Source: Aulosira sp. ZfuVER01
GTDB taxonomy: Bacteria; Cyanobacteriota; Cyanobacteriia; Cyanobacteriales; Nostocaceae
Length of the DNA stretch: 64,000 nucleotides
Direction: 5' to 3'
Assembly (NCBI GenBank): GCA_034530615.2
Contig: JAVRCV020000066.1
Span: 16,576 to 80,575 of the forward strand
The notes under the pieces: generated by a model
The model's database searches: none
What the model was told of the DNA's origin: nothing
Seen by the model: the letters and a program-made list of their open reading frames with translations, nothing else
Made by a program: the position numbers and the translations under genes
Shown here: positions 39,834-55,166 of the stretch, in pieces
Layout: every line of letters starts with the position of its first letter
Numbering within the stretch: position 1 is the first letter of the stretch

Positions 39834-42800
39834 TTGAAAACGTTTGAATTCTTATCTTATCTTCGCAACTTAGATATTCAAGTTTTTATTGATGGCGAAA
39901 TATTGCGCTGTAATGCTCCTGAAGGAAGTTTAACAGCAGAACTCCGTAGAGAAATTCAAGACCGTAAAGCAGAAATTATTGAATTTTTGCAAACTGCTAA
40001 TCGTACTAATAATTATACTTCTACTCCGCTTCTACCTATTTCCCGCACCGGAAATCTTCCTCTATCCTTTGCTCAACAAAGACTGTGGTTTCTCGATCAA
40101 CTATTACCTAACAATCCTTTTTATAACGTTCCGGCAGCATTGCATTTAAAAGGTAGGCTTAATTTAGCAGCGCTAGAGCAAAGTTTTAACGAAATTGTGC
40201 AACGTCACGAAGCTTTACGCACTAATTTTGTTATGCAGTCCGGGAAACCAGTTCAGGTAATTAAATCCCTATTAAAAATATCATTACCAATCATAGATTT
40301 GCGGCAACAGCCACCAGCCGAACTCGAAACAGAAGCACAAAAACTTATTACCCAAGAAGCTCAAAGACCTTTCAATTTAGCAACAGATTCTTTACTACGA
40401 GTAAGACTGTTGCAATTGGATGAAGCAGAATATATCTTGCTGTTGAATATCCACCACATTGTTTCCGATGGTTGGTCTATTGGGGTGCTATTTCAAGAAA
40501 TTGCCGCACTCTACACAGCTTTTACTAATAAACAGCCTTCTCCTTTACCGCAACTAAAAATTCAATATGCAGATTTTGCTCAATGGCAACGCCAATCACT
40601 GCAAGGGGAAGTTTTAGAAAATCAATTAGCTTACTGGCGAAAGCAATTAAGTAATATTTCTATACTCAATTTACCTACCGACAAACCACGGACAGCCGTT
40701 CAATCTCACCGAGGTGCAAGGCAATTTATAAAACTACCTAAAAGCTTGAGTGCAGCGCTTTTAACTTTTTCCCAGCAGGAAGGTGTAACTTTATTCATGA
40801 CTCTGCTGGCGGCATTCCAAATATTACTTTACCGCTACACTCAGCAAGAAGATATTGCTGTCGGTTCACCTATTGCCAACCGAAACCGCAGTGAAATTGA
40901 AGGATTAATTGGATTTTTTGTGAATAGTTTGGTGTTGCGTACCAACTTCAGCGGAAATCCAACTTTTAGAGAATTATTGAGGCGAGTTAAAGAAGTCGCT
41001 TTAGGAGCTTACGCTCATCAAGATTTGCCTTTTGAAAAGCTGGTAGAGGAACTGCATCCAGAACGAAATTTAAATCAAAACCCTTTATTTCAAGTAGCAT
41101 TTGCAGTACAAAATGCGCCGATGTCGGCGTTAGAGCTACCTGAATTAACAGTCAATACTTGGCCCTTTGATAGTGGAACAACGCGCTTTGATTTAGAGTT
41201 TCACTTGTGGGAGCCGGAAAAAAAGAATGGTTTCTGGGTAGATAGTTCGGAAGAAATTAGCGGTTTTGTGATTTACAGCACTGAGTTATTTGATGATGCT
41301 ACTATTACTCGGATGCTGGAACATTTCCAAATATTACTTGAGGGTATAGTTGCAAATCCAGAACAAAGAATCGCTGAGTTACCCCTTTTAAGTGAATCGG
41401 AGTTACATCAGTTATTAGTGGTATGGAATAATACCAGAGTAGATTATCCTCAAGATAAGTGCATCCATCAATTATTTGAGGAAATTGTAGAGCAAAATCC
41501 CGATGCACAAGCACTTGTATTTCAAGAGCAACAACTTACCTATCAAGAGTTAAATCAACGCAGTAACCAACTTGCACATTATCTCAAAAAATTAGGCGTT
41601 GGAAGCGAAGTTTTAGTAGGGCTTTGTGTAGAACGTTCTTTTGATATGGTAATCGGGATGTTAGCTATCCTGAAAGCAGGCGGAGCATACTTACCTTTAG
41701 ATCCAAACTATCCGCCTGAGCGTTTAAAATTTATGCTTGCAGATGCGCAAGTGTCAATTTTATTAACTCACCAGCAATGGGTTGAACGTTTAGGCGATTA
41801 CAATTCGCAGATAATCTGTTTGGATAAAAATTGGAAAGTTATTGCTCAAGAAAGTGAAGATAATCTTTCTAGCAAAGTTACAGTAGAAAACCTTGCTTAT
41901 GTCATTTATACCTCTGGCTCCACAGGAAAGCCTAAAGGTGTAGAAATTGAGCATAGAGGATTGTTAAATCTAATTTTTTGGCATCAAAAAGCTTTTACAA
42001 TTTCATCTCATGACCGAGTAACACAGATTGCTGGGATTGCTTTTGATGCTTGCGGTTGGGAAATTTGGCCTTACCTAACTGCTGGGGCAAGTATTTATAT
42101 TGTAGATGATGAAATTAAGCGATCGCCTGAGCATCTCAAAGATTGGCTGATATCAAAAGCTATCACAATTTCTTTTTTACCAACACCTTTGGCTGAGAAG
42201 ATTATATCATTAAATTTTTCTCAACATTCAGCTTTAAGAATATTACTAACAGGTGGAGATAAACTACATGAATATCCTTTAGCTTCCCATACTTTCCAGG
42301 TAGTTAACAACTACGGGCCTACAGAAAATACAGTTGTGACAACTTCCGGGCAAGTTAATGTTAAAAATCAAGGTAATATAACACCTACAATTGGTCGTCC
42401 CATTGCGAATACACAAGTTTATATACTAGATAAAAATTTACAACCTTTACCTATTGGCGTTCCTGGGGAATTATACATTAGTGGTGATGGTTTAGCGCGT
42501 GGATATTTAAACCGTGCAGATTTAACTGCTGAATGCTTTATGAAGGCAGAGGGCAGATGGCAGAAGGCAGAAGAAGGAAGAGAAGCAGGAAATCGTTTGT
42601 ACAGAACAGGTGATTTAGTTCGCTATCAATTAGATGGCAATATTGAATTTTTAGGTCGCCTTGATGAGCAGGTAAAAATTCGCGGCTATCGCATTGAGTT
42701 GGGAGAAATTGAAGCAGTAATAAATCAGCATCCAGCAGTAGAGCAAACTGTAGTAATAACTTATGAGGATGCAGGTGAGAAACGTTTAGTAGCTTATGTT

Positions 42801-44564
42801 GTTCTGAATAGTGAATCCAGCAGCAAGCAAGAAAATCAGCAGTTAATGGAATTGCAAGAGGAGCAGGTTTTGCAATGGCAAATGCTCTATAACGAAACTT
42901 ATCATCAATCTGCTGCCGATTTAGATCCAAAATTTAATTTTATTGGCTGGAATAGTAGTTATACAAATAAGCCTATTCCAGTAGAGCAAATGCGTGAGTG
43001 GATAGATAACCAAGTCGCGCAAATTTTAGCTTTGCAACCACAGCGAGTATTAGAAATTGGGTGTGGAACAGGTTTAGTGCTTTTTAGAATTGCTCCTCAC
43101 TGTTCTCAATATTATGGAACAGATTTTTCTCCGATTTCAATTAACTACATCCAACAGCAGTTGGCAAAGCAAGCAATACCGCAAGTAACGCTACATCAAA
43201 AGATGGCTGATGATTTTGCGGGAATAGAAGCAGCAGCTTTTGATGTGGTAATTATCAACTCTGTTGTGCAATATTTTCCTAGTATTGATTATTTAATTCG
43301 CGTAATAGAAGGTGCTGTAAAAACAACTGCGCCTGGTGGTTTTATCTTTTTAGGAGATGTGTGTAACCTACGACTTTTACAAGCTTTTCATGCATCTGTG
43401 CAACTATATCAAGCTGAACCTTCTTTAACCCGCGCCGAGTTGCAGCAACGGGTACAAATGCAACTTTTCCAAGAGACAGAGTTAGTCATCGATCCTGCTT
43501 TTTTTAATGCATTGAAGCAGCAATTTCCCCAAATTAGCCACGTACAAATTCAACTGATTCGGGGAAAAGAAAGTAATGAGTTAACTCAGTTTCGTTACAA
43601 TGCTATTCTTCATATTAGCAGCGAACAGCAGGAAAGCAGAGAAATACAATGGCTAGACTGGCGTGAAAACAATTTAACAATATCATCAGTAGATCGGTTA
43701 TTAAATGAGAAGCAACCAGAGATTTTAGCTATTACCAATGTACCGAATGCACGGGTAATAGCAGCAGTGAAAACAGCAGCATGGCTAGCAGGTGAAGAAG
43801 ATTTGCAAACAGCAGGCCAGATGCGTAAGGCTTTGCAAGAAATAGAGAATTTAGGAGTAAATCCCGAAGAATTTTATGAGCTGGCTAATCTACTTCCTTA
43901 CAGAGTAAATATTAGCTGCTCAGATTCTAGTAGTGAAGGAGATTATGATGTAGTTTTTGTACAGGAAGAAGCAATAAATCAAAAAATTGTTTTACCACAC
44001 AGCACCCAACAACGTGCATGGTCTTCTTATGCAAATAATCCCCTACAAGCTAAAGCAGCACGTAAGTTAGTACCGCAATTGCAAACTTATTTAACGCAAA
44101 AGCTGCCGGATTACATGATACCGTCTATGTTTGTAGTGCGATCGCACTTACCTCTGACGGCTAATGGTAAAGTCGATCGTCGTGCTTTAAAAGTACCCGA
44201 TTTCATCAACTCAGAATTAGCCGCAGGTTATGTTGCGCCTCGAACTCCCGTAGAACAAGTATTAGCGAAAATTTTTGCTGAGGTGCTAGGAATCAAGCAC
44301 GTTGGTATTCACGACAATTTCTTTCAGCTAGGCGGACATTCTTTATTAGCAACTCAGCTTATTTCCAGAGTACGCGACAGCTTTGGCTTGGAGTTACCTT
44401 TGCGCAGTATATTTGAAGCATCGACAATTGCAGAGTTATCTCAGGTCGTGGAAAGCTTTAAACAAAGCAATACTCAAAGTCAAGCCCCAGCTTTAGTACC
44501 ATTATCCCGTGAAAGTCGGCGGATGAAGTTGTCTTCTTTAAATAAAGAGAGTCAGGAGAATTGA
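39834..44564 (+). CDS. Single-module NRPS: TubC-N-like docking domain - C - A(N-methyltransferase) - T (A code read by hand DAWFLGNVVK, Leu-like)
   Basis: TTG start, EFLSYLRNLDIQVFIDGEILRCNAPEG..KAEIIEFL docking domain; HHIVSDGWS; NNYGPTE; VLEIGCGTG and NSVVQYFP MT inserted in the A subdomain; FFQLGGHSL. Confidence 0.95.
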   Translation: MKTFEFLSYLRNLDIQVFIDGEILRCNAPEGSLTAELRREIQDRKAEIIEFLQTANRTNNYTSTPLLPISRTGNLPLSFAQQRLWFLDQLLPNNPFYNVPAALHLKGRLNLAALEQSFNEIVQRHEALRTNFVMQSGKPVQVIKSLLKISLPIIDLRQQPPAELETEAQKLITQEAQRPFNLATDSLLRVRLLQLDEAEYILLLNIHHIVSDGWSIGVLFQEIAALYTAFTNKQPSPLPQLKIQYADFAQWQRQSLQGEVLENQLAYWRKQLSNISILNLPTDKPRTAVQSHRGARQFIKLPKSLSAALLTFSQQEGVTLFMTLLAAFQILLYRYTQQEDIAVGSPIANRNRSEIEGLIGFFVNSLVLRTNFSGNPTFRELLRRVKEVALGAYAHQDLPFEKLVEELHPERNLNQNPLFQVAFAVQNAPMSALELPELTVNTWPFDSGTTRFDLEFHLWEPEKKNGFWVDSSEEISGFVIYSTELFDDATITRMLEHFQILLEGIVANPEQRIAELPLLSESELHQLLVVWNNTRVDYPQDKCIHQLFEEIVEQNPDAQALVFQEQQLTYQELNQRSNQLAHYLKKLGVGSEVLVGLCVERSFDMVIGMLAILKAGGAYLPLDPNYPPERLKFMLADAQVSILLTHQQWVERLGDYNSQIICLDKNWKVIAQESEDNLSSKVTVENLAYVIYTSGSTGKPKGVEIEHRGLLNLIFWHQKAFTISSHDRVTQIAGIAFDACGWEIWPYLTAGASIYIVDDEIKRSPEHLKDWLISKAITISFLPTPLAEKIISLNFSQHSALRILLTGGDKLHEYPLASHTFQVVNNYGPTENTVVTTSGQVNVKNQGNITPTIGRPIANTQVYILDKNLQPLPIGVPGELYISGDGLARGYLNRADLTAECFMKAEGRWQKAEEGREAGNRLYRTGDLVRYQLDGNIEFLGRLDEQVKIRGYRIELGEIEAVINQHPAVEQTVVITYEDAGEKRLVAYVVLNSESSSKQENQQLMELQEEQVLQWQMLYNETYHQSAADLDPKFNFIGWNSSYTNKPIPVEQMREWIDNQVAQILALQPQRVLEIGCGTGLVLFRIAPHCSQYYGTDFSPISINYIQQQLAKQAIPQVTLHQKMADDFAGIEAAAFDVVIINSVVQYFPSIDYLIRVIEGAVKTTAPGGFIFLGDVCNLRLLQAFHASVQLYQAEPSLTRAELQQRVQMQLFQETELVIDPAFFNALKQQFPQISHVQIQLIRGKESNELTQFRYNAILHISSEQQESREIQWLDWRENNLTISSVDRLLNEKQPEILAITNVPNARVIAAVKTAAWLAGEEDLQTAGQMRKALQEIENLGVNPEEFYELANLLPYRVNISCSDSSSEGDYDVVFVQEEAINQKIVLPHSTQQRAWSSYANNPLQAKAARKLVPQLQTYLTQKLPDYMIPSMFVVRSHLPLTANGKVDRRALKVPDFINSELAAGYVAPRTPVEQVLAKIFAEVLGIKHVGIHDNFFQLGGHSLLATQLISRVRDSFGLELPLRSIFEASTIAELSQVVESFKQSNTQSQAPALVPLSRESRRMKLSSLNKESQEN

Positions 44565-44655: not shown

Positions 44656-44907
44656 ATGACCACTAAAATTACATTAGAAATTGATGAAGCTTTGCTCCAA
44701 AAAGCAGAACGTTGGGCGAAGCAACAACAATTGTCGCTTTCTGATGTAATTTCCAATTTTCTACGTCAGTTACCAGAATCTGATTTAATAGCCCAAAATG
44801 AACATGCTTTAGCAAAGTTTGCTGGAATTTTGAGTGATTCTGAAGCTAGAGAATTACAGCAGGCGATCGCAGCAGAGTTTGACCAGATAGACACAAATGA
44901 ATGGTAA
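44656..44907 (+). CDS. Putative RHH-type antitoxin (VapB-like)
   Basis: MTTKITLEIDEALLQKAERWAKQQQLSLSDVI; overlaps the downstream PIN gene by 11 bp. Confidence 0.75.
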   Translation: MTTKITLEIDEALLQKAERWAKQQQLSLSDVISNFLRQLPESDLIAQNEHALAKFAGILSDSEARELQQAIAAEFDQIDTNEW

Positions 44908-45286
44908 TGTAGCCTTGGATACTTCTGTCGCAGTGCGTTTTTTGAATGGCGATGAAGCAGTTGTGGCTCAGGTATTAGCATTGACAAAAGTTATTCTACC
45001 AACTGTGGTTGTGGGTGAATTATTGTTTGGTGCGGAAAATTCAAGTCGTTCTTTACAAAATCTACCGCGTTATCTAGAGTTTATTGAAACCTGTGAAGTA
45101 GTAACTTTAGGTCGAGAAACTGCGGTAATGTATGCTCGAACTCGGTTGGCATTGAAGCAGAAGGGGCGACCGATTCCAATGAATGATGTTTGGATTGCAG
45201 CCCAGTGTTTAGAACATGGTTGGCGGTTGGTCACGGATGATTCAGATTTTGCCTATGTAGATGGGCTGATCTTGGAAAGATGGTAA
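44897..45286 (+). CDS. vapC: PIN-domain toxin
   Basis: ALDTSV, GELLFG, GRPIPMNDVWIAA, VTDDSDF. Confidence 0.9.
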   Translation: MNGNVALDTSVAVRFLNGDEAVVAQVLALTKVILPTVVVGELLFGAENSSRSLQNLPRYLEFIETCEVVTLGRETAVMYARTRLALKQKGRPIPMNDVWIAAQCLEHGWRLVTDDSDFAYVDGLILERW

Positions 45287-45365: not shown

Positions 45366-46196
45366 ATGCCAAGTGGTGTTCATGATTCAGCCTTGATTGT
45401 TAACGCTTTTCGCGCCAGAAAAATTCATATTAGTGCCGATAAATTTGCAGCATTATGGATTTCACCAGAAAGCGATATCTGGGCAAATAAGTATGCAGAA
45501 CAAGTTGGCTCGACGGAAATTTTAGTACACGCCCTGCGCCATAGATTTTTTCTTGAGTGTTTAAATAAATTTTTTGATAAGTCTTCAGATGGCGTATTTA
45601 TTAATATTGGCGCTGGATTTACAAACTATCCCTACCTAATATCATTAAAAATTCCTTGCTGTGAAATTGATACAGAAGTCAACATCAAATTCAAGCAGCA
45701 AAAGCTAGCCGAGTTTGAACTTAAGGGCAATTTTCCTTATCGCCAGCTTCAATTTATAACTGTGAATGATTTGAACGATTTGCCTGAGATTTCTCATCTG
45801 GAGTTAGTTTTGAGAGAATGGATAGGCGATCGCTCCTCATTTATACTTTTTGAAGGTGTGTTCTTTTACTTAAAAATTGAAGCGATCGGTCATTTTTATA
45901 GAATGTTAGCTGCTCTACAGCAGAGAGGCGATATTGTAGCTAGCACTTCATTTCGTCCAGAAGAATGTAACAAATTAATGTTTCAAAGGCTGGTAGATTA
46001 TTGCAGAACAGATTACAAAATGAGGAATTTTACACCTACAACAATTTCTACAAGCTTTTATTCTCAGCAATCAAACTATTCCTTAGTCACTCATAAAAAT
46101 TATTACAGTTTGTGCCAGGAGTTTGCTTTGGCAGAAACACTAGAAAATCCAGAGGAAGTTTTAGAGGAAGACTGCTATGTCCTAGAACGGCTGTAG
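45366..46196 (+). CDS. Class I SAM-dependent methyltransferase, leucine carboxyl methyltransferase (LCM)-like
   Basis: SA...RA, LRHRFF, INIGAGF, EID, K..KL, FEGVFFYL match the LCM family layout. Confidence 0.75.
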   Translation: MPSGVHDSALIVNAFRARKIHISADKFAALWISPESDIWANKYAEQVGSTEILVHALRHRFFLECLNKFFDKSSDGVFINIGAGFTNYPYLISLKIPCCEIDTEVNIKFKQQKLAEFELKGNFPYRQLQFITVNDLNDLPEISHLELVLREWIGDRSSFILFEGVFFYLKIEAIGHFYRMLAALQQRGDIVASTSFRPEECNKLMFQRLVDYCRTDYKMRNFTPTTISTSFYSQQSNYSLVTHKNYYSLCQEFALAETLENPEEVLEEDCYVLERL

Positions 46197-47373: not shown

Positions 47374-47437
47374 TTAGAGTTAGTGGTTCAGTAGAATGAG
47401 CGATCGCCCGATTATTTTAACAGTGCGATCGCTCCCT

Positions 47438-47668
47438 AAACTAGCATTTGCGGTTGTTGAACTAGCATTTGCGGCTGTTGAACTAGCATTTGCGGCTGTT
47501 GAACTAGCATTCGCGGCTGTTGAACTAGCATGTGCGGCTGTTGAACTAGCATTCGCGGCTATTGAACTAGCATTTGCGACTGTTGAAGTAGCATTTGCGG
47601 CTGTTGAACTAGCATCTGCGGCTAGTGAACTAGCATTTGCGACTCGTGAACTAGCATTCGCAGCTAAT
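47438..47668. repeat. 11 x 21-bp tandem repeat (consensus GAACTAGCATTTGCGGCTGTT)
   Basis: Counted directly: 11 contiguous units without spacers; open on both strands (ELAFAAV)n / (ANASSTA)n. Confidence 0.95.
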
Positions 47669-47839
47669 TTCGGCAAATATACTCTTACTTATCCATTTTG
47701 CTCATCTTAATGCCTACAAACTTCTGTACCTTCACTGTGGCTGGTGTATTTGTTTATTGCGTATTGTAAAAGTATCTAAAGAACTCAGTACAAAAAGCTA
47801 TCAGGGTTCTTTTTACCACCATGTAAACAGGAAAACTTT

Positions 47840-48208
47840 ATGGTAACGCGCAAACGTAATTCAAAAGCACTCACCAAAGCTGAACGACGGATTGAAGGAA
47901 TGCAGATGATTAATCCCCCGTTAGACTTTGGTAATGAGTTGTCAATCGCTAATTACAACAATAAAATTCTGGAGATTCGAGATAAGCTAACCGCTTACAA
48001 TCAAGCACAAGTAATGGTTGAAACGACACAGAATGCATTAGCACAAGCAGAACGCGAGTTGAATGTTCTTTCTGAGAAAATGCTGCTGAGTGTTGCATCT
48101 CAGTATGGCAAAACTAGTGATGAATATGGGATGGCTGGTGGAACCCGCAGAACAAACCGCAAAAAAGCACGTCCAGCGACTAAACAAACACCCACATCTG
48201 CGGAGTGA
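47840..48208 (+). CDS. Small basic helical hypothetical protein
   Basis: CAGGA RBS; RKRNS..KAERR, LDFG, YN, MLLSVASQYGKTSDEYGMAGG.R; followed by a terminator. Confidence 0.8.
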   Translation: MVTRKRNSKALTKAERRIEGMQMINPPLDFGNELSIANYNNKILEIRDKLTAYNQAQVMVETTQNALAQAERELNVLSEKMLLSVASQYGKTSDEYGMAGGTRRTNRKKARPATKQTPTSAE

Positions 48209-48425: not shown

Positions 48426-49763
48426 ATGAGCATGACAATTATCAGTCTTCGAGAAGCCCTGCAAAGCCTTCCCAAAAATGCACAAGAACCTGTTGTAAAC
48501 GATTTTTTTGCTTCTCACTTATTGAGGGCATTAGGGTTTCAATCTGAAGAAATTCATCCAGAATATAACACTGGCAACGGAAATGTTGATAAAGCAGCCA
48601 GAAAAACCATTGGAGACGATGTGTTTTTACACACAAAATCTAATCCATATCTTCTACTAGAGTTAAAGGGTAGAGATATTAACCTCTCGGAAGATGCTGC
48701 ACAGTATCAAATAACGGTTAATCAATTGAAGCGTTATCTACTTGCTCCTAATTCCAAAACTGTAGAGTGGGGAATAATTACTAATTCTTGCCACATTCAA
48801 CTGTTTCGTAAGCATGGAAAAGTGATTTATCCGGCAACAAAATGTCTTTCAATTGATGCAGATAATATTGATAGCGTAATTGCTTCAATTCGGCAAAAAA
48901 TCGAAAATTCTGCTAGAGCCTTAAGCATTGCAGTTTATAACAACAAAGGAGGAGTAGGAAAAACTACAACTACCGTAAATTTAGCAGCTATATTAACTTT
49001 TTTAGGTAAAAAAGTTTTAGCGATTGATTTTGATCCTAACCAACAAGACTTAACTAGTTCTTTAGGTCTTCCATTGAGTAAAGGAAGTGTCTTTGAGGCT
49101 CTTACACAAAGAGATATAGAACTTCAAAGTACTCTACATCCTTATAAATTTCCTCTAAAAAAGATTAGTAACGAACTGAGGTTTGATGTTATTCCCGCCG
49201 ATCAAAAACTAATAGATGAATCTGAAAATCTCTTACGTAATCATCTGAAGCTTAACACTCTTTATCGCAAGCTAGAATTGTCAAGAAAAGAATACGATTA
49301 TATTTTAATAGATGCGCCACCTAACTGGCGAGTATTTAGCCAACTAGCTGTTTATGCGGCTGATGTCGTTCTCATTCCCACAAAGCATAACAATCTTTTC
49401 TCTTTAGAAAATGCAGCAATGGCAATGAAGAAATTTATTCCTGAAGTACAATCTAAAAAAGCTGATGGTAGTCCTATTCCATTGCCAATATTTTTCAATG
49501 GAGAAAAGATTACACTACCTCAAATGGCAGTTGCTCAACAAGAAATTAATAACATTCTTAAAACTGCTAAAAAAGAGGGATTTGATTTATTATCTTACTT
49601 CTATCCTAAGTATACCAATGCCAACAAAGACCTTCATATTCATGAGGTTCCAAGCTACGCTAATATAGCTGGTTCAGCTTTCTCGCGTATTCCTGCGGTT
49701 TATCGAGATCGATCTGCTCATGAATATTACAAAAATCTAGCAAAGGAGTATTTTTTACAATGA
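48426..49763 (+). CDS. Fusion of HsdR-N-like PD-(D/E)xK domain and ParA/Soj ATPase
   Basis: N-half E..V...LLRALGF, VD, LLELKG, QLKRY, WGIITNS..IQLF; C-half NNKGGVGKTT, IDFDPNQ, YILIDAPP. Confidence 0.85.
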   Translation: MSMTIISLREALQSLPKNAQEPVVNDFFASHLLRALGFQSEEIHPEYNTGNGNVDKAARKTIGDDVFLHTKSNPYLLLELKGRDINLSEDAAQYQITVNQLKRYLLAPNSKTVEWGIITNSCHIQLFRKHGKVIYPATKCLSIDADNIDSVIASIRQKIENSARALSIAVYNNKGGVGKTTTTVNLAAILTFLGKKVLAIDFDPNQQDLTSSLGLPLSKGSVFEALTQRDIELQSTLHPYKFPLKKISNELRFDVIPADQKLIDESENLLRNHLKLNTLYRKLELSRKEYDYILIDAPPNWRVFSQLAVYAADVVLIPTKHNNLFSLENAAMAMKKFIPEVQSKKADGSPIPLPIFFNGEKITLPQMAVAQQEINNILKTAKKEGFDLLSYFYPKYTNANKDLHIHEVPSYANIAGSAFSRIPAVYRDRSAHEYYKNLAKEYFLQ

Positions 49764-50452
49764 GTAGCCTCAGCGATATTGGAAATTTAATGCACTTGTA
49801 TTTAGATGAAATTGACCCTGGTCAAGGAACTGATGCGCCTGAATTTTTAATCAAAGCTTCAGCCCATCTGCTTAACCAGAAAGGAGGACGAAATTGGATT
49901 CCAGTTATTGTAAAAGAAACTGGCGAAGATAAGTATCAAGTAATTGCTAATTCTTTCATTTATGCAATTGCAGAAGCTGCTGGCTTGGATCGCGTGTGGT
50001 GCATTATTACTGATGGTAGTGATGAGACAGTTGAAGTAACAAAAATACTTGCAGGGGAAGAAATTCCAAAAATTAATCTGTCTAAAGCATCTAGGGATGA
50101 AATTAAAGCAGCATTAGAGTATTTAGTCAAGCAACCAGATAGCGCTCTCAAAGCAGTTAAACCTGCTATAGCTACAAACCGGATTGATGACGCTCCTCGT
50201 CAATATTGGAAGACATTAGAGCCAATCATTAATTTGAAATGTGGAATTACCAAAGGTAAAAAACTTGATGCTTTAAATCAAGTTTTTTATCTCACTCCTC
50301 AACCAATGCCAGATACAACTACCGATGCTAATTTTCTCAAAACAATGTCAACTGCTGATCTAAAAGCAATGGCTAAGAAACGAGAAATTACTGGCATCAG
50401 TAAGATGAAAAAAGACGATCTTGTTGCAGCCTTGAGTAAGCCTTTAAAGTAG
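49760..50452 (+). CDS. ParB/Srx-like N-terminal region + C-terminal Rho-N-like helical domain
   Basis: ATGA overlap with the upstream gene; IPVIVKETGEDKYQVIAN; MSTADLKAMAKKREITGISKMKKDDLVAAL. Confidence 0.72.
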   Translation: MSSLSDIGNLMHLYLDEIDPGQGTDAPEFLIKASAHLLNQKGGRNWIPVIVKETGEDKYQVIANSFIYAIAEAAGLDRVWCIITDGSDETVEVTKILAGEEIPKINLSKASRDEIKAALEYLVKQPDSALKAVKPAIATNRIDDAPRQYWKTLEPIINLKCGITKGKKLDALNQVFYLTPQPMPDTTTDANFLKTMSTADLKAMAKKREITGISKMKKDDLVAALSKPLK

Positions 50453-50472
50453 CAAGTATTTTAATCTTCCGT

Positions 50473-50630
50473 AGGGTGTGTTATGCCGGAGGCTAACGCA
50501 CCTTGAATTGTTGATCGTGTATCGGTGCCGGTGCGTTGCGCTACGCGACAACACACCCTACTACATTTAAATTCTTTAGTAAATCAAGGCAAGATTGTAG
50601 CGATCGCCTCGAAAAGTGCGATCGCAGTTA
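50473..50630 (+). repeat. Direct repeat copy 1 (REP doublet + AT-rich tail + HIP1 pair)
   Basis: Matches 51382-51530, including the identical run ctactacatttaaattctttagtaaatcaaggcaagatt. Confidence 0.9.
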
Positions 50631-51381: not shown

Positions 51382-51530
51382 AGGGTGTGTTATGCCGGAG
51401 GCTAACGCACCTTTAATTGTTGATTATGCATCGTTGCCGTTGCGCTGCGCGACAACACTACTACATTTAAATTCTTTAGTAAATCAAGGCAAGATTATTG
51501 CGATCGCACTTTTCGAGGCGATCGCTGTTA
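51382..51530 (+). repeat. Direct repeat copy 2
   Basis: See 50473-50630; the REP part is more degenerate and the HIP1 spacer is inverted. Confidence 0.9.
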
Positions 51531-51630
51531 TGCTCATCAGCAATTAAAAGTACCCACGCGAGTACTGCCAAGATGCGATCGCTTGCTTTCGCCATATCTC
51601 GGTTTAGCAACTAGGTAAAATCAGAGAGTT

Positions 51631-53171: not shown

Positions 53172-55166
53172 CTAGCCTATCGGCTCAATCTCCCACCATT
53201 TTTGGCTAAAAGGTTGGCGGCGTGTATTCGTACCACAATGAATTTCCCCCCTGGAGCGAAAATAAGGGTCCCAATCATCGATAAAGTGGCAAACTAAACC
53301 CAAAGGTTCTAAAAGTCCTTTGACATACGCTTCAAATTGACATTGGTTATTAACTTTGGGGCCAAATGGTTTGGGAATACCCAGATGTTGGTTGAGAACG
53401 ATCATGTTAACCATGTTGGGGAAAAAAGTTTCTGCTCGCCCATAGCCATCATCTTCAAATAAACCAGGTATTTCGATAATATCTTCGTCGCCTAATTCTA
53501 ATTGCTGTTTTAAAACCTCTCGATTCCAATTAATGTATTCTTGAAAGCGCTGGTTATCACTAGCTAAGTTTTCATTATCAAGAATCTCTGCCACACTAAT
53601 ATCAGCAGGCTTGTTAGCAAGTCGCTTTCCTTGCCGCAATAATGCTTGAGAATGTCCTTCATCTCGTAAGCGTCTGAGAAGGTCATAACACTTGCCAGGA
53701 CTTGTTAAAATTAGCTTAAATCCTTGATGGGTAGCAGCAGGCACAAAGGTCATAAACTCATCAACGTGCCCTACACTCAGCCAGTCGGAAAAAATTTCAA
53801 ATGGCGCTTGAATTTTTTGAGCATAGAGAAAGTCTCGCAAGACTCTCAACATTCGTCGCGGTTCCTTCTGGATAATTTCTTTGCGAGTTCCGCCAAATAT
53901 CAGACGACCAAAAGGATAATAAACACCTTTGACTGTGACTGGGGGAGAAACTTCTAAGTTACCAAAAGAGTCTAATCTTGTCGCTTCATAGCGGCTTTTG
54001 CGAGTTACATAACCAAAGTCAATACCCAGAAGTTTGCGTTTGGGAAAATCAATTAGTCCGCGATCGCGTGGCGAATCAAATACCACGTGCATCAATTGTC
54101 CCGGTGCTTGAGCATAACCAATTTCAATTTCGTCTTGCATCCAAGGATCGTCTTGATGAAACTCATAAGGAACAATATCTAGTTGAGCGTTAGCTTTACC
54201 AGCAACTTTTCTCAGTTCCTCAATAAATTCGGCATTCAATCCCTTAGATAAACGAGAAACAAACACAGTGATCGGGGCTAAGGTATTAGGAGTCATCATC
54301 CAAGGAGCGACTCGAAAAACCACGCGATCGCTGTATGCTATTTCTCCGTCTTTCTCGAGATTTAAATTAATCTCAACTACGCCATCAAAATCAACATCAG
54401 GATAACTCAATGCCTCTATAGCCAAAAGAATATCTTTGTCAGTATCCTTAATTTTGGCTTTTGTAATTCCCGGCCCAATTAACTCATAGCCATCTCGATC
54501 TAATTCGTCATAAATGCGAATGCGTTTAGCAGTGTCTCGATTGACTGACAAGTAAAGTTCGTATCCAGAAGGTAAATTTCTTAAACCTACTTTCCGAACA
54601 ATCATAAAGCTAAAATCTTTGAGATCTAGCAGTCCTCTGATATAGTTTTCTTCGCTATCATTCTGTCCATTAGAATAAATAACGTCGCAATCGCTATTAA
54701 CTAATAAAACTGCACCATGACCATTACTTCCCCATTGCCAGTTTCCTTTATGAGGATGATTTTCTTCAATCGTGCCATCCCGATCTGCATCCACATCTAA
54801 ACAAATTCGCAGACAAGTGAGCTTAAAGCGAACTTGACTCAACAAACGACCAGCCTCATCTTGAAAGGTGATTTGTAAAGAACGGTCTTCTACTTCATCG
54901 CTAAAAGTTCTCGCTAACAGAGTAATATCTGGAATTTCTTCTAAAGGAATCAGAGTTTTTATAGCAATAACAGGCTGTGCAAGAGATGAAACCTCGATTT
55001 CTCCCTGAGTTTCTAAACTCACAAATTTACTATTAGCAGGAGCCAGATTTTGTAAAGATATTTGCAATGGCTGACCGACAACTAAAACATCTTCGTATTC
55101 CCGAATCCTTTCTCGCGAGCGTGAGCTACGACCATTTAAATCTTCAACTTGCAATAAAGTTCTCAT
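53172..55166 (-). CDS. Protein-arginine deiminase (PAD/PADI) family protein
   Basis: LDVDADRDG, LLVNSDCD, FRVAPW, WMQDE, DSFGNLEVSPPV, WLSVGHVDEF, FPNMVN, PKPFGP, GEIHCGTN. Confidence 0.93.
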   Translation of the reverse strand: MRTLLQVEDLNGRSSRSRERIREYEDVLVVGQPLQISLQNLAPANSKFVSLETQGEIEVSSLAQPVIAIKTLIPLEEIPDITLLARTFSDEVEDRSLQITFQDEAGRLLSQVRFKLTCLRICLDVDADRDGTIEENHPHKGNWQWGSNGHGAVLLVNSDCDVIYSNGQNDSEENYIRGLLDLKDFSFMIVRKVGLRNLPSGYELYLSVNRDTAKRIRIYDELDRDGYELIGPGITKAKIKDTDKDILLAIEALSYPDVDFDGVVEINLNLEKDGEIAYSDRVVFRVAPWMMTPNTLAPITVFVSRLSKGLNAEFIEELRKVAGKANAQLDIVPYEFHQDDPWMQDEIEIGYAQAPGQLMHVVFDSPRDRGLIDFPKRKLLGIDFGYVTRKSRYEATRLDSFGNLEVSPPVTVKGVYYPFGRLIFGGTRKEIIQKEPRRMLRVLRDFLYAQKIQAPFEIFSDWLSVGHVDEFMTFVPAATHQGFKLILTSPGKCYDLLRRLRDEGHSQALLRQGKRLANKPADISVAEILDNENLASDNQRFQEYINWNREVLKQQLELGDEDIIEIPGLFEDDGYGRAETFFPNMVNMIVLNQHLGIPKPFGPKVNNQCQFEAYVKGLLEPLGLVCHFIDDWDPYFRSRGEIHCGTNTRRQPFSQKWWEIEPIG

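Follow-up and report, generated by a model that had tools for sequence, protein, structure and literature searches.

What does a pair of overlapping genes do when the first joins a restriction-type nuclease fold to a ParA ATPase and the second resembles a ParB protein that has no helix–turn–helix (HTH)? Such a pair lies in the window (the whole 64,000-nucleotide stretch of Aulosira sp. ZfuVER01 DNA analysed here), and an original prediction took it for an undescribed defence or DNA-surveillance system. The architecture already has a name: Li, Burroughs and Aravind predicted it computationally in October 2026 as effector-ParAB (bioRxiv 10.64898/2026.10.19.760177), so the word 'undescribed' falls. 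The pair appears to fit this predicted class in all the architectural features that we examined. It is thus not a new system, as far as the available text of the preprint goes; two leads, the lopsided decay of the cassette and viral copies of its partner domain, go beyond the preprint's main text. The pair and its predicted domains are laid out as follows.

48426..49763, + strand: gene 1, nuclease-fold domain fused to a ParA/Soj ATPase (445 aa)
48432..48914, + strand: PD-(D/E)xK domain, HsdR-N or type IIG-IIL-like (aa 3-163; placed by Pfam HSDR_N_2, fold match and conservation)
48915..49760, + strand: ParA domain (aa 164-445; Walker A, D201-x-D203, Walker B D296)
49760..49763, + strand: ATGA stop/start overlap of genes 1 and 2, as originally predicted (4 bases, as in 65 of 80 related loci)
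49760..50452, + strand: gene 2, partner protein without HTH (230 aa)
49772..50065, + strand: ParB/Srx-fold domain (aa 5-102; GERR replaced by NSFI at 49949-49960; net charge about -10)
50066..50302, + strand: ComEA-type helix-hairpin-helix (HhH) domain (aa 103-181)
50321..50449, + strand: Rho-N or SAP-like helix-extension-helix domain (aa 188-230)

A nuclease–ParA fusion and its ParB-derived partner

Gene 1 matches Pfam HSDR_N_2 over residues 26-129 (E 4.8e-6, above cut-off) and AAA_31 over residues 168-344 (E 1.1e-34). Fold search with its AlphaFold model (pLDDT 88, pTM 0.90) finds ParA/Soj (Z 27.7, rmsd 2.5, 248 residues aligned) and, for residues 1-163, two nuclease domains, that of BpuSI (Z 12.6, rmsd 3.4, 143 aligned) and that of DrdV (Z 12.3, rmsd 2.7, 130 aligned); a sequence-profile search returned no match for this N-terminal domain among solved structures, which are reached by fold search only. 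The nuclease domain (dN/dS 0.13) has E21, D55 (48588-48590), E79, K81 (48666-48668) and Q100-x3-Y104, and the ParA domain (dN/dS 0.15) a Walker A of the form N-KGGVGKT, with K174 at 48945, and conserved basic C-terminal residues, some of them beyond residue 335 or so, where alignments to solved Soj end. All 121 aligned close relatives, the window protein included, have D55, E79, K81, Q100, K174, K179, D201, D203 and D296 unchanged; across 162 diverse nuclease-bearing members, in an alignment partly misaligned in divergent clades, D55 is kept in 144, E79 in 158 and K81 in 157. Gene 1 is thus modelled as a type IIG/IIL-like PD-(D/E)xK domain fused to a Soj-like ParA, bearing out the HsdR-N-like domain and intact ATPase first read from its motifs.

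Gene 2 resolves, in its predicted model, into three domains. Residues 5-102 match the ParB/Srx fold of PadC (Z 11.1, rmsd 2.6, 94 aligned), a ParB-like recruiter of ParA; residues 103-180 match a ComEA-type HhH at a middling score (Z 6.6, rmsd 2.1, 61 aligned), backed by Pfam HHH matches in divergent partners; and residues 188-230 match Rho-N (Z 6.8; Pfam E 1.9e-9). The C-terminal Rho-N had been foreseen and the HhH domain overlooked. Some relatives of the partner duplicate the HhH domain, and in some Rho-N is absent or has a second HhH in its place; matches in the ESM Atlas are cyanobacterial clusters, labelled by Rho-N alone. The expected loss of the usual nucleotide motif also held: ParB's GERR aligns to NSFI, arginine occurs at the GERR positions in none of 170 partner domains, and the upstream arginine of Spo0J/Noc has no counterpart in gene 2. 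In ParB, residues of GERRxRA touch CTP directly, according to the part of PMC10786196 consulted. We found in gene 2 neither an HTH for parS binding, residues 103-230 modelling as HhH and Rho-N, nor a basic N-terminal ParA-stimulating motif, the first lysine or arginine being residue 32. The ParB-fold domain is acidic, with a median net charge of -8 (n=162) versus -0.5 in a control of only four canonical ParB sequences. On these models, gene 2 is a ParB fold without CTP-binding arginines, followed by a ComEA-type HhH and a Rho-N domain. All five domains of the pair are under purifying selection when compared with nine close relatives (dN/dS 0.075-0.20), the ParB-fold domain having the lowest value (0.075).

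Neither protein has an NCBIfam match above cut-offs, and PADLOC-DB 2.0 holds no matching system: gene 1 gives short Walker A matches only and gene 2 none. Gene 1 also has no match at E up to 1e-15 in 50,697 GenBank phage records.

The effector-ParAB class, as the available text of the preprint describes it, has a ParA gene then a ParB gene in one operon, an effector directly N-terminal to ParA—mostly a restriction-type nuclease, also HEPN, caspase, TOPRIM or phosphoesterases—and a probably inactive ParB with an HhH or Rho-N-type domain instead of an HTH (bioRxiv 10.64898/2026.10.19.760177). Our pair shares with it the operonic coupling, the N-terminal nuclease, the exchange for HEPN described below, the ParB without its catalytic residues, and HhH with Rho-N. 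The part of the class closest to our pair appears to be the ConB1 ParA clade, for which the preprint gives signatures (ConB1/PriB1): a Walker A valine, an asparagine before the motif and a glutamine two residues after DxD. Gene 1 has the valine (V177) and the asparagine (N173); its glutamine is shifted by one residue, with N205 at DxD+2 and Q at +3, the commonest form in the family (73 cases).

Other known systems resemble the pair in part. Type I ParABS (Soj/Spo0J, Noc, KorB) and PadC share its deviant-Walker-A ParA, ParB/Srx fold and gene order, whereas the pair is without GERRxRA, HTH, nearby parS and ParA-stimulating motif and bears a nuclease head on its ParA. With BpuSI, DrdV and the HsdR N-terminal domain it shares the nuclease fold, D-(x)n-E-x-K and QxxxY; unlike type I, IIG or IIL restriction enzymes it has no methyltransferase, specificity domain or translocase, and has a ParA switch instead. 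With type II toxin–antitoxin systems it has in common a coupled two-gene operon, a nuclease effector and an effector gene that is lost first, but here the effector is fused to ParA and the partner has no HTH repressor domain. A dyad of HEPN and ParA/Soj has been proposed as a type II toxin–antitoxin system in the part of PMC3710099 consulted; our literature search found no primary paper on the Salmonella ParA–HEPN system.

As had been noted, the genes adjoining the pair in the window include no replication gene, no specificity subunit and no DNA methyltransferase; the one methyltransferase gene nearby, at 45366, encodes a leucine-carboxyl type. The surroundings hold several features of their own. 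A 21-base tandem repeat, present in about 14 copies (47397-47711), begins at a HIP1-containing hairpin (47398-47434) and is followed by a 122-aa open reading frame (ORF) without a family match (47840-48208); L022-L024 have repeat and ORF upstream of their cassettes as well. Just 3' of gene 2 lies an inverted repeat with 32-base arms (50471-50561); similar DNA occurs at 51382-51531 and in L004, L023 and L024, like a small mobile repeat. By eye, 39834-44564 encodes an NRPS of one module into which a methyltransferase-like region is inserted, and the 664-aa ORF at 53172-55166 resembles protein-arginine deiminase.

A patchy cassette with exchangeable effectors

The cassette is patchy in cyanobacteria, changes its neighbours, decays often and occurs as plasmid cargo. 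We found it in 6 of 14 same-genus genomes and did not find it in the other 8; matches to the partner occur in 17 of 41 relatives (weak matches counted in), in 193 of 401 order-level genomes (142 strongly, the weak matches taking in ordinary ParB and sister clades) and in 49 of 301 phylum-level genomes. The best 80 named loci are cyanobacterial except for a few bins labelled only uncultured bacterium or Tatlockia; relatives at about 89% identity are Nostoc. According to the preprint's available text, effector-ParAB is enriched in multicellular bacteria such as cyanobacteria (bioRxiv 10.64898/2026.10.19.760177); an exception to this trend is L107 (G272), where a cyanobacterium with a small genome of 1.7 Mb has a complete but very divergent cassette. 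More distant sister clades with an HSDR_N–ParA and a ParB-like gene (L110, L204-L221; for example, L206:3046-6436 and L219:2515-6007) are common in Cyanobacteriales, and one (L204) has two ParB-like genes in tandem order.

Across 80 related loci there is no conserved third gene. In L025-L027, at 83-88% identity, the DNA match to the window stops at the cassette edges; some close relatives have the window's neighbourhood in common, L022 and L024 sharing its flanking genes. The vapBC that was said to accompany the pair in an accessory region is present (a DUF6364/VapB-like and PIN pair at 44656-45286, 3.1 kb from the cassette), and its link to the cassette looks incidental, because there is no DNA match over vapBC in L022 and L024 and PIN genes are not enriched beside the cassette (1 of 147 immediate neighbours versus 2 of 646). 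Small mobile genes as a set (Uma2-like, XisI, small HNH, PIN) make up 19 of the 147 immediate neighbours versus 14 of 646 distal genes, by profiles that were seeded from the same loci and with five HNH matches coming from three Microcoleus loci. Enrichment of the cassette next to validated defence systems was not seen: the 147 immediate neighbours match few defence models, and most of their PADLOC matches (E up to 1e-8) are to Uma2-type candidates, to small HNH proteins or to ATPase, kinase and TnpB domains of a generic kind.

Most examined copies lie amid chromosomal genes, and 8 of 72,556 plasmid records match the partner. Three related plasmids of Nostoc sp. UHCC 0870 hold the cassette in a variable region close to an integrase, and have their own ParM/StbA and/or canonical ParAB and ParDE. 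One plasmid (L142:7685-11986, NZ_CP091922.1) has a cargo operon with dynamin-family, YjcZ-like and patatin-like phospholipase genes, which looks defence-like. Within 250 bases of the cassette, in 141 upstream and 157 downstream flanks, we found no match to the parS consensus and no shared cis motif beyond HIP1.

The effector itself varies. In three loci (L109, L170, L171) a HEPN_Swt1 domain stands in the nuclease's place (Pfam E 3e-34, 3e-27 and 5e-40) with the R-x4-H motif of the Swt1-like HEPN, and in three related genomes (L167, L172, L173) an effector-less ParA is followed by the partner, with no nuclease or HEPN remnant found upstream. A quick tree places both kinds in a well-supported ParA clade with nuclease-bearing members (support 100 for the clade that holds the HEPN members). 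The effector-less versions are kept under purifying selection (dN/dS 0.16-0.26), and the core of ParA and partner may therefore act without a nuclease. Further variants include a fusion of ParA to the end of a C-terminal domain of superfamily-1 helicases (Pfam AAA_12), with a ParB-like gene next in line and a split nuclease–ParA cassette nearby (L203:2777-4354); gene 1 copies longer by about 140 N-terminal residues (L083:8238-10001; G419:C179), for which a TerB-like reading made by eye in L083 was not confirmed by Pfam; and an internal deletion after which the partner's HhH and Rho-N continue the reading frame of a partial ParA (L014:1501-2514).

Lopsided decay and the role of the partner

To tell an inhibitor role of the partner from the sensor role given it in the preprint, we turned to the pattern of gene loss. 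We searched 361 of the 401 order-level genomes with both N-domain and partner profiles, paired 149 strong N-domain matches by hand with partner matches and inspected odd loci, leaving out the 80 GTDB loci, which had been chosen by gene 2 and were hence biased. Full-length copies of gene 1 whose N-domain matches strongly number 129, and 127 of them have an adjacent partner; in one of the remaining two a contig end truncates the partner (L188/L176), and the sole partnerless copy (L185) has the substitutions D55H, K81R and Y104H, in a genome with two other complete cassettes. Catalytic residues have also been lost in one copy that has a partner (L138). The converse, a broken gene 1 next to an intact partner, occurs in 12 loci (L151, L156, L181, L189, L190, L191 and L198-L203, of which L151, L189, L190 and L203 were recovered via the partner search or a weaker match) and probably in a thirteenth (L192); both genes are damaged in about a dozen loci, and five contig-edge cases are undecidable. 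Against a null set by gene length, in which gene 1 accounts for 66% of the DNA, a count of 12 in 13 has p 0.034, in a small test in which kin are not independent and some breaks or single frameshifts may be sequencing errors. As gene 1 breaks beside an intact partner, whereas the one full-length gene 1 that has no partner has lost catalytic residues, the decay suggests, without being strong, that the partner restrains the nuclease.

Effector exchange, patchiness, position as plasmid cargo and lopsided decay together support, by inference, a conflict or defence module with a partner-controlled nuclease, as was originally proposed, and neither a normal restriction–modification system nor a partition cassette. 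In the reading that we prefer, at about an even chance of being right, the pair is an accessory effector-ParAB module, predicted to act against invading DNA, in which an ATP-switched nuclease is probably kept inactive by the partner, a restraint that infection would lift. ATP binding dimerizes Soj/ParA, and the dimer would bring two nuclease heads together on DNA. HhH and Rho-N, both basic, would hold the partner on host nucleic acid; the partner's ParB-fold domain, which is acidic, would attach to a basic surface of the ParA or nuclease and either block it or discharge the ATP. Once a phage or plasmid invades, the partner may be lost, diluted or displaced, which would free the nuclease to cut DNA and so to destroy the invader or arrest the cell. 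We favour a restraining partner because decay is lopsided, the ParB-fold domain is acidic and the C-terminal part of ParA has many basic residues, and place it, again with roughly balanced confidence, ahead of three other models. The dN/dS values of 0.08-0.2 are unlike the fast evolution expected of an arms-race sensor, and count against this main reading.

Foremost among the alternatives, and possible though doubtful, is the model of the preprint itself, which in its available text casts the ParB as a nucleotide-bound sensor clamp (bioRxiv 10.64898/2026.10.19.760177): the partner would sense invader DNA through HhH/Rho-N and clamp with CTP or another nucleotide, and the clamped partner would recruit ParA to coat the invader, the nuclease serving as a back-up. 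It draws strength from the persistence of effector-less versions under selection, from the two basic nucleic-acid-binding folds at the partner's C terminus, and from PadC as best fold match. The absence of the GERR arginines from the partners, where GERRxRA residues of ParB touch CTP directly (the consulted part of PMC10786196), and of the upstream Spo0J/Noc arginine argues against such a clamp, and a pure activator would be expected to be lost as freely as gene 1, whereas we found no catalytically complete gene 1 without a partner. The pair thus differs from the class as the preprint's available text frames it, the indications here being for a restraining partner without the arginine patch.

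Lopsided decay would be equally at home in a selfish addiction module, its nuclease killing cells that lose the cassette or its plasmid and having no role against phage, and the plasmid cargo position and the small mobile genes beside the cassette (counted with profiles seeded from these loci) point the same way; we think this unlikely, given the mostly chromosomal setting of the examined copies, the few plasmid records matched and the exchange of a DNase for an RNase head, which suits the effector slot of an immune system equally well or better. Most improbable to us is a partition or positioning system for polyploid cyanobacteria with a nuclease head that resolves tangled DNA: its closest folds are Soj/ParA and ParB/Noc/PadC, purifying selection is strong and an ordinary ParA gene often adjoins the distant sister clade (L206, L207, L210, L218, L219, L221), but the pair is without an HTH, a CTP motif and any parS-like or shared cis motif beyond HIP1 in its flanks, was not found in more than half of the same-genus genomes, rides on plasmids that have their own partition genes, and can take an RNase-type head for its DNase.

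Partner domains in viral genomes

A profile search of 1.84 billion proteins returned, among its best 150 hits, 24 in which the partner domain lies behind a long unrelated N-terminal region, often in tandem (twice); two further flagged hits group with ordinary partners. With the window's domain these 24 phage-type domains share 30-50% identity, far more than canonical ParB does, and they have the partner's arginine-free signature. A weak tree of 100 columns puts them at two positions, among cassette partners and away from canonical ParB. No tandem copy of the partner domain was found in the 401 cyanobacterial genomes at E up to 1e-32. On four IMG/VR contigs the partner-domain gene has no ParA in the fetched flanks; three of the four genes adjoin portal, minor-head or major-head genes, and the fourth adjoins a 1481-aa ORF of tape-measure size without a PHROG match. 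A fifth viral contig (L227) holds the whole cassette. The phage-type proteins, which have the domain once or twice, are the following.

L224:5605-6675 (the same as L225): phage-type partner-domain protein in a virion-gene region
L226:7179-8627: phage-type partner-domain protein in a virion-gene region
L228:1-744: phage-type partner-domain protein in a virion-gene region
L229:6145-7923: phage-type partner-domain protein in a virion-gene region
P0293, P0319, P0328, P0353 and others: further phage-type partner-domain proteins

A basic N-terminal peptide is common to three nearby ORFs in L224. The HU protein of L226 has as its best solved match the entry 1p51, which we take to be Anabaena HU, a weak hint at a cyanobacterial host.

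ParB-like domains in phage structural proteins have a precedent in the DdrB-like domains of polyvalent virion proteins (the consulted part of Iyer et al. 2017, PMC5512222). The viral contigs here likewise place a ParB/Srx domain in late-gene regions without ParA; as described in that source, DdrB-like domains keep the active-site arginine, whereas the viral domains here are arginine-free like the partner. The phage-type domains are near neutral (median net charge +1), and a simple mimic of the inhibitor is disfavoured because they are not acidic. The words mimic, decoy and anti-defense gave no hit in the main text of the preprint (bioRxiv 10.64898/2026.10.19.760177), and our literature search found no paper joining ParB-like, virion, anti-defense and cyanophage. 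One speculative scenario, to which we give a slim chance, is that the partner is an acidic, DNA-tethered inhibitor, acting on a nuclease that dimerizes with ATP, whose arginine-free domain was captured by phages, possibly twice, in head-region and likely injected proteins that disarm or trip the system.

The name effector-ParAB dates only from October 2026 and was given to a prediction, as its preprint's available text presents it, and the Aulosira pair is a compact, well-conserved example. Because this compact pair has a close relative in Nostoc punctiforme PCC 73102, the question of ParA as an immune switch is directly testable. The decay pattern yields a prediction that separates two mechanisms, the partner as inhibitor and the partner as sensor, and the viral copies of its domain are candidate counter-defence or trigger proteins. 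If the capture scenario were true, cyanobacterial cassette and viral copies would be defence and counter-defence, both made out of partition proteins.
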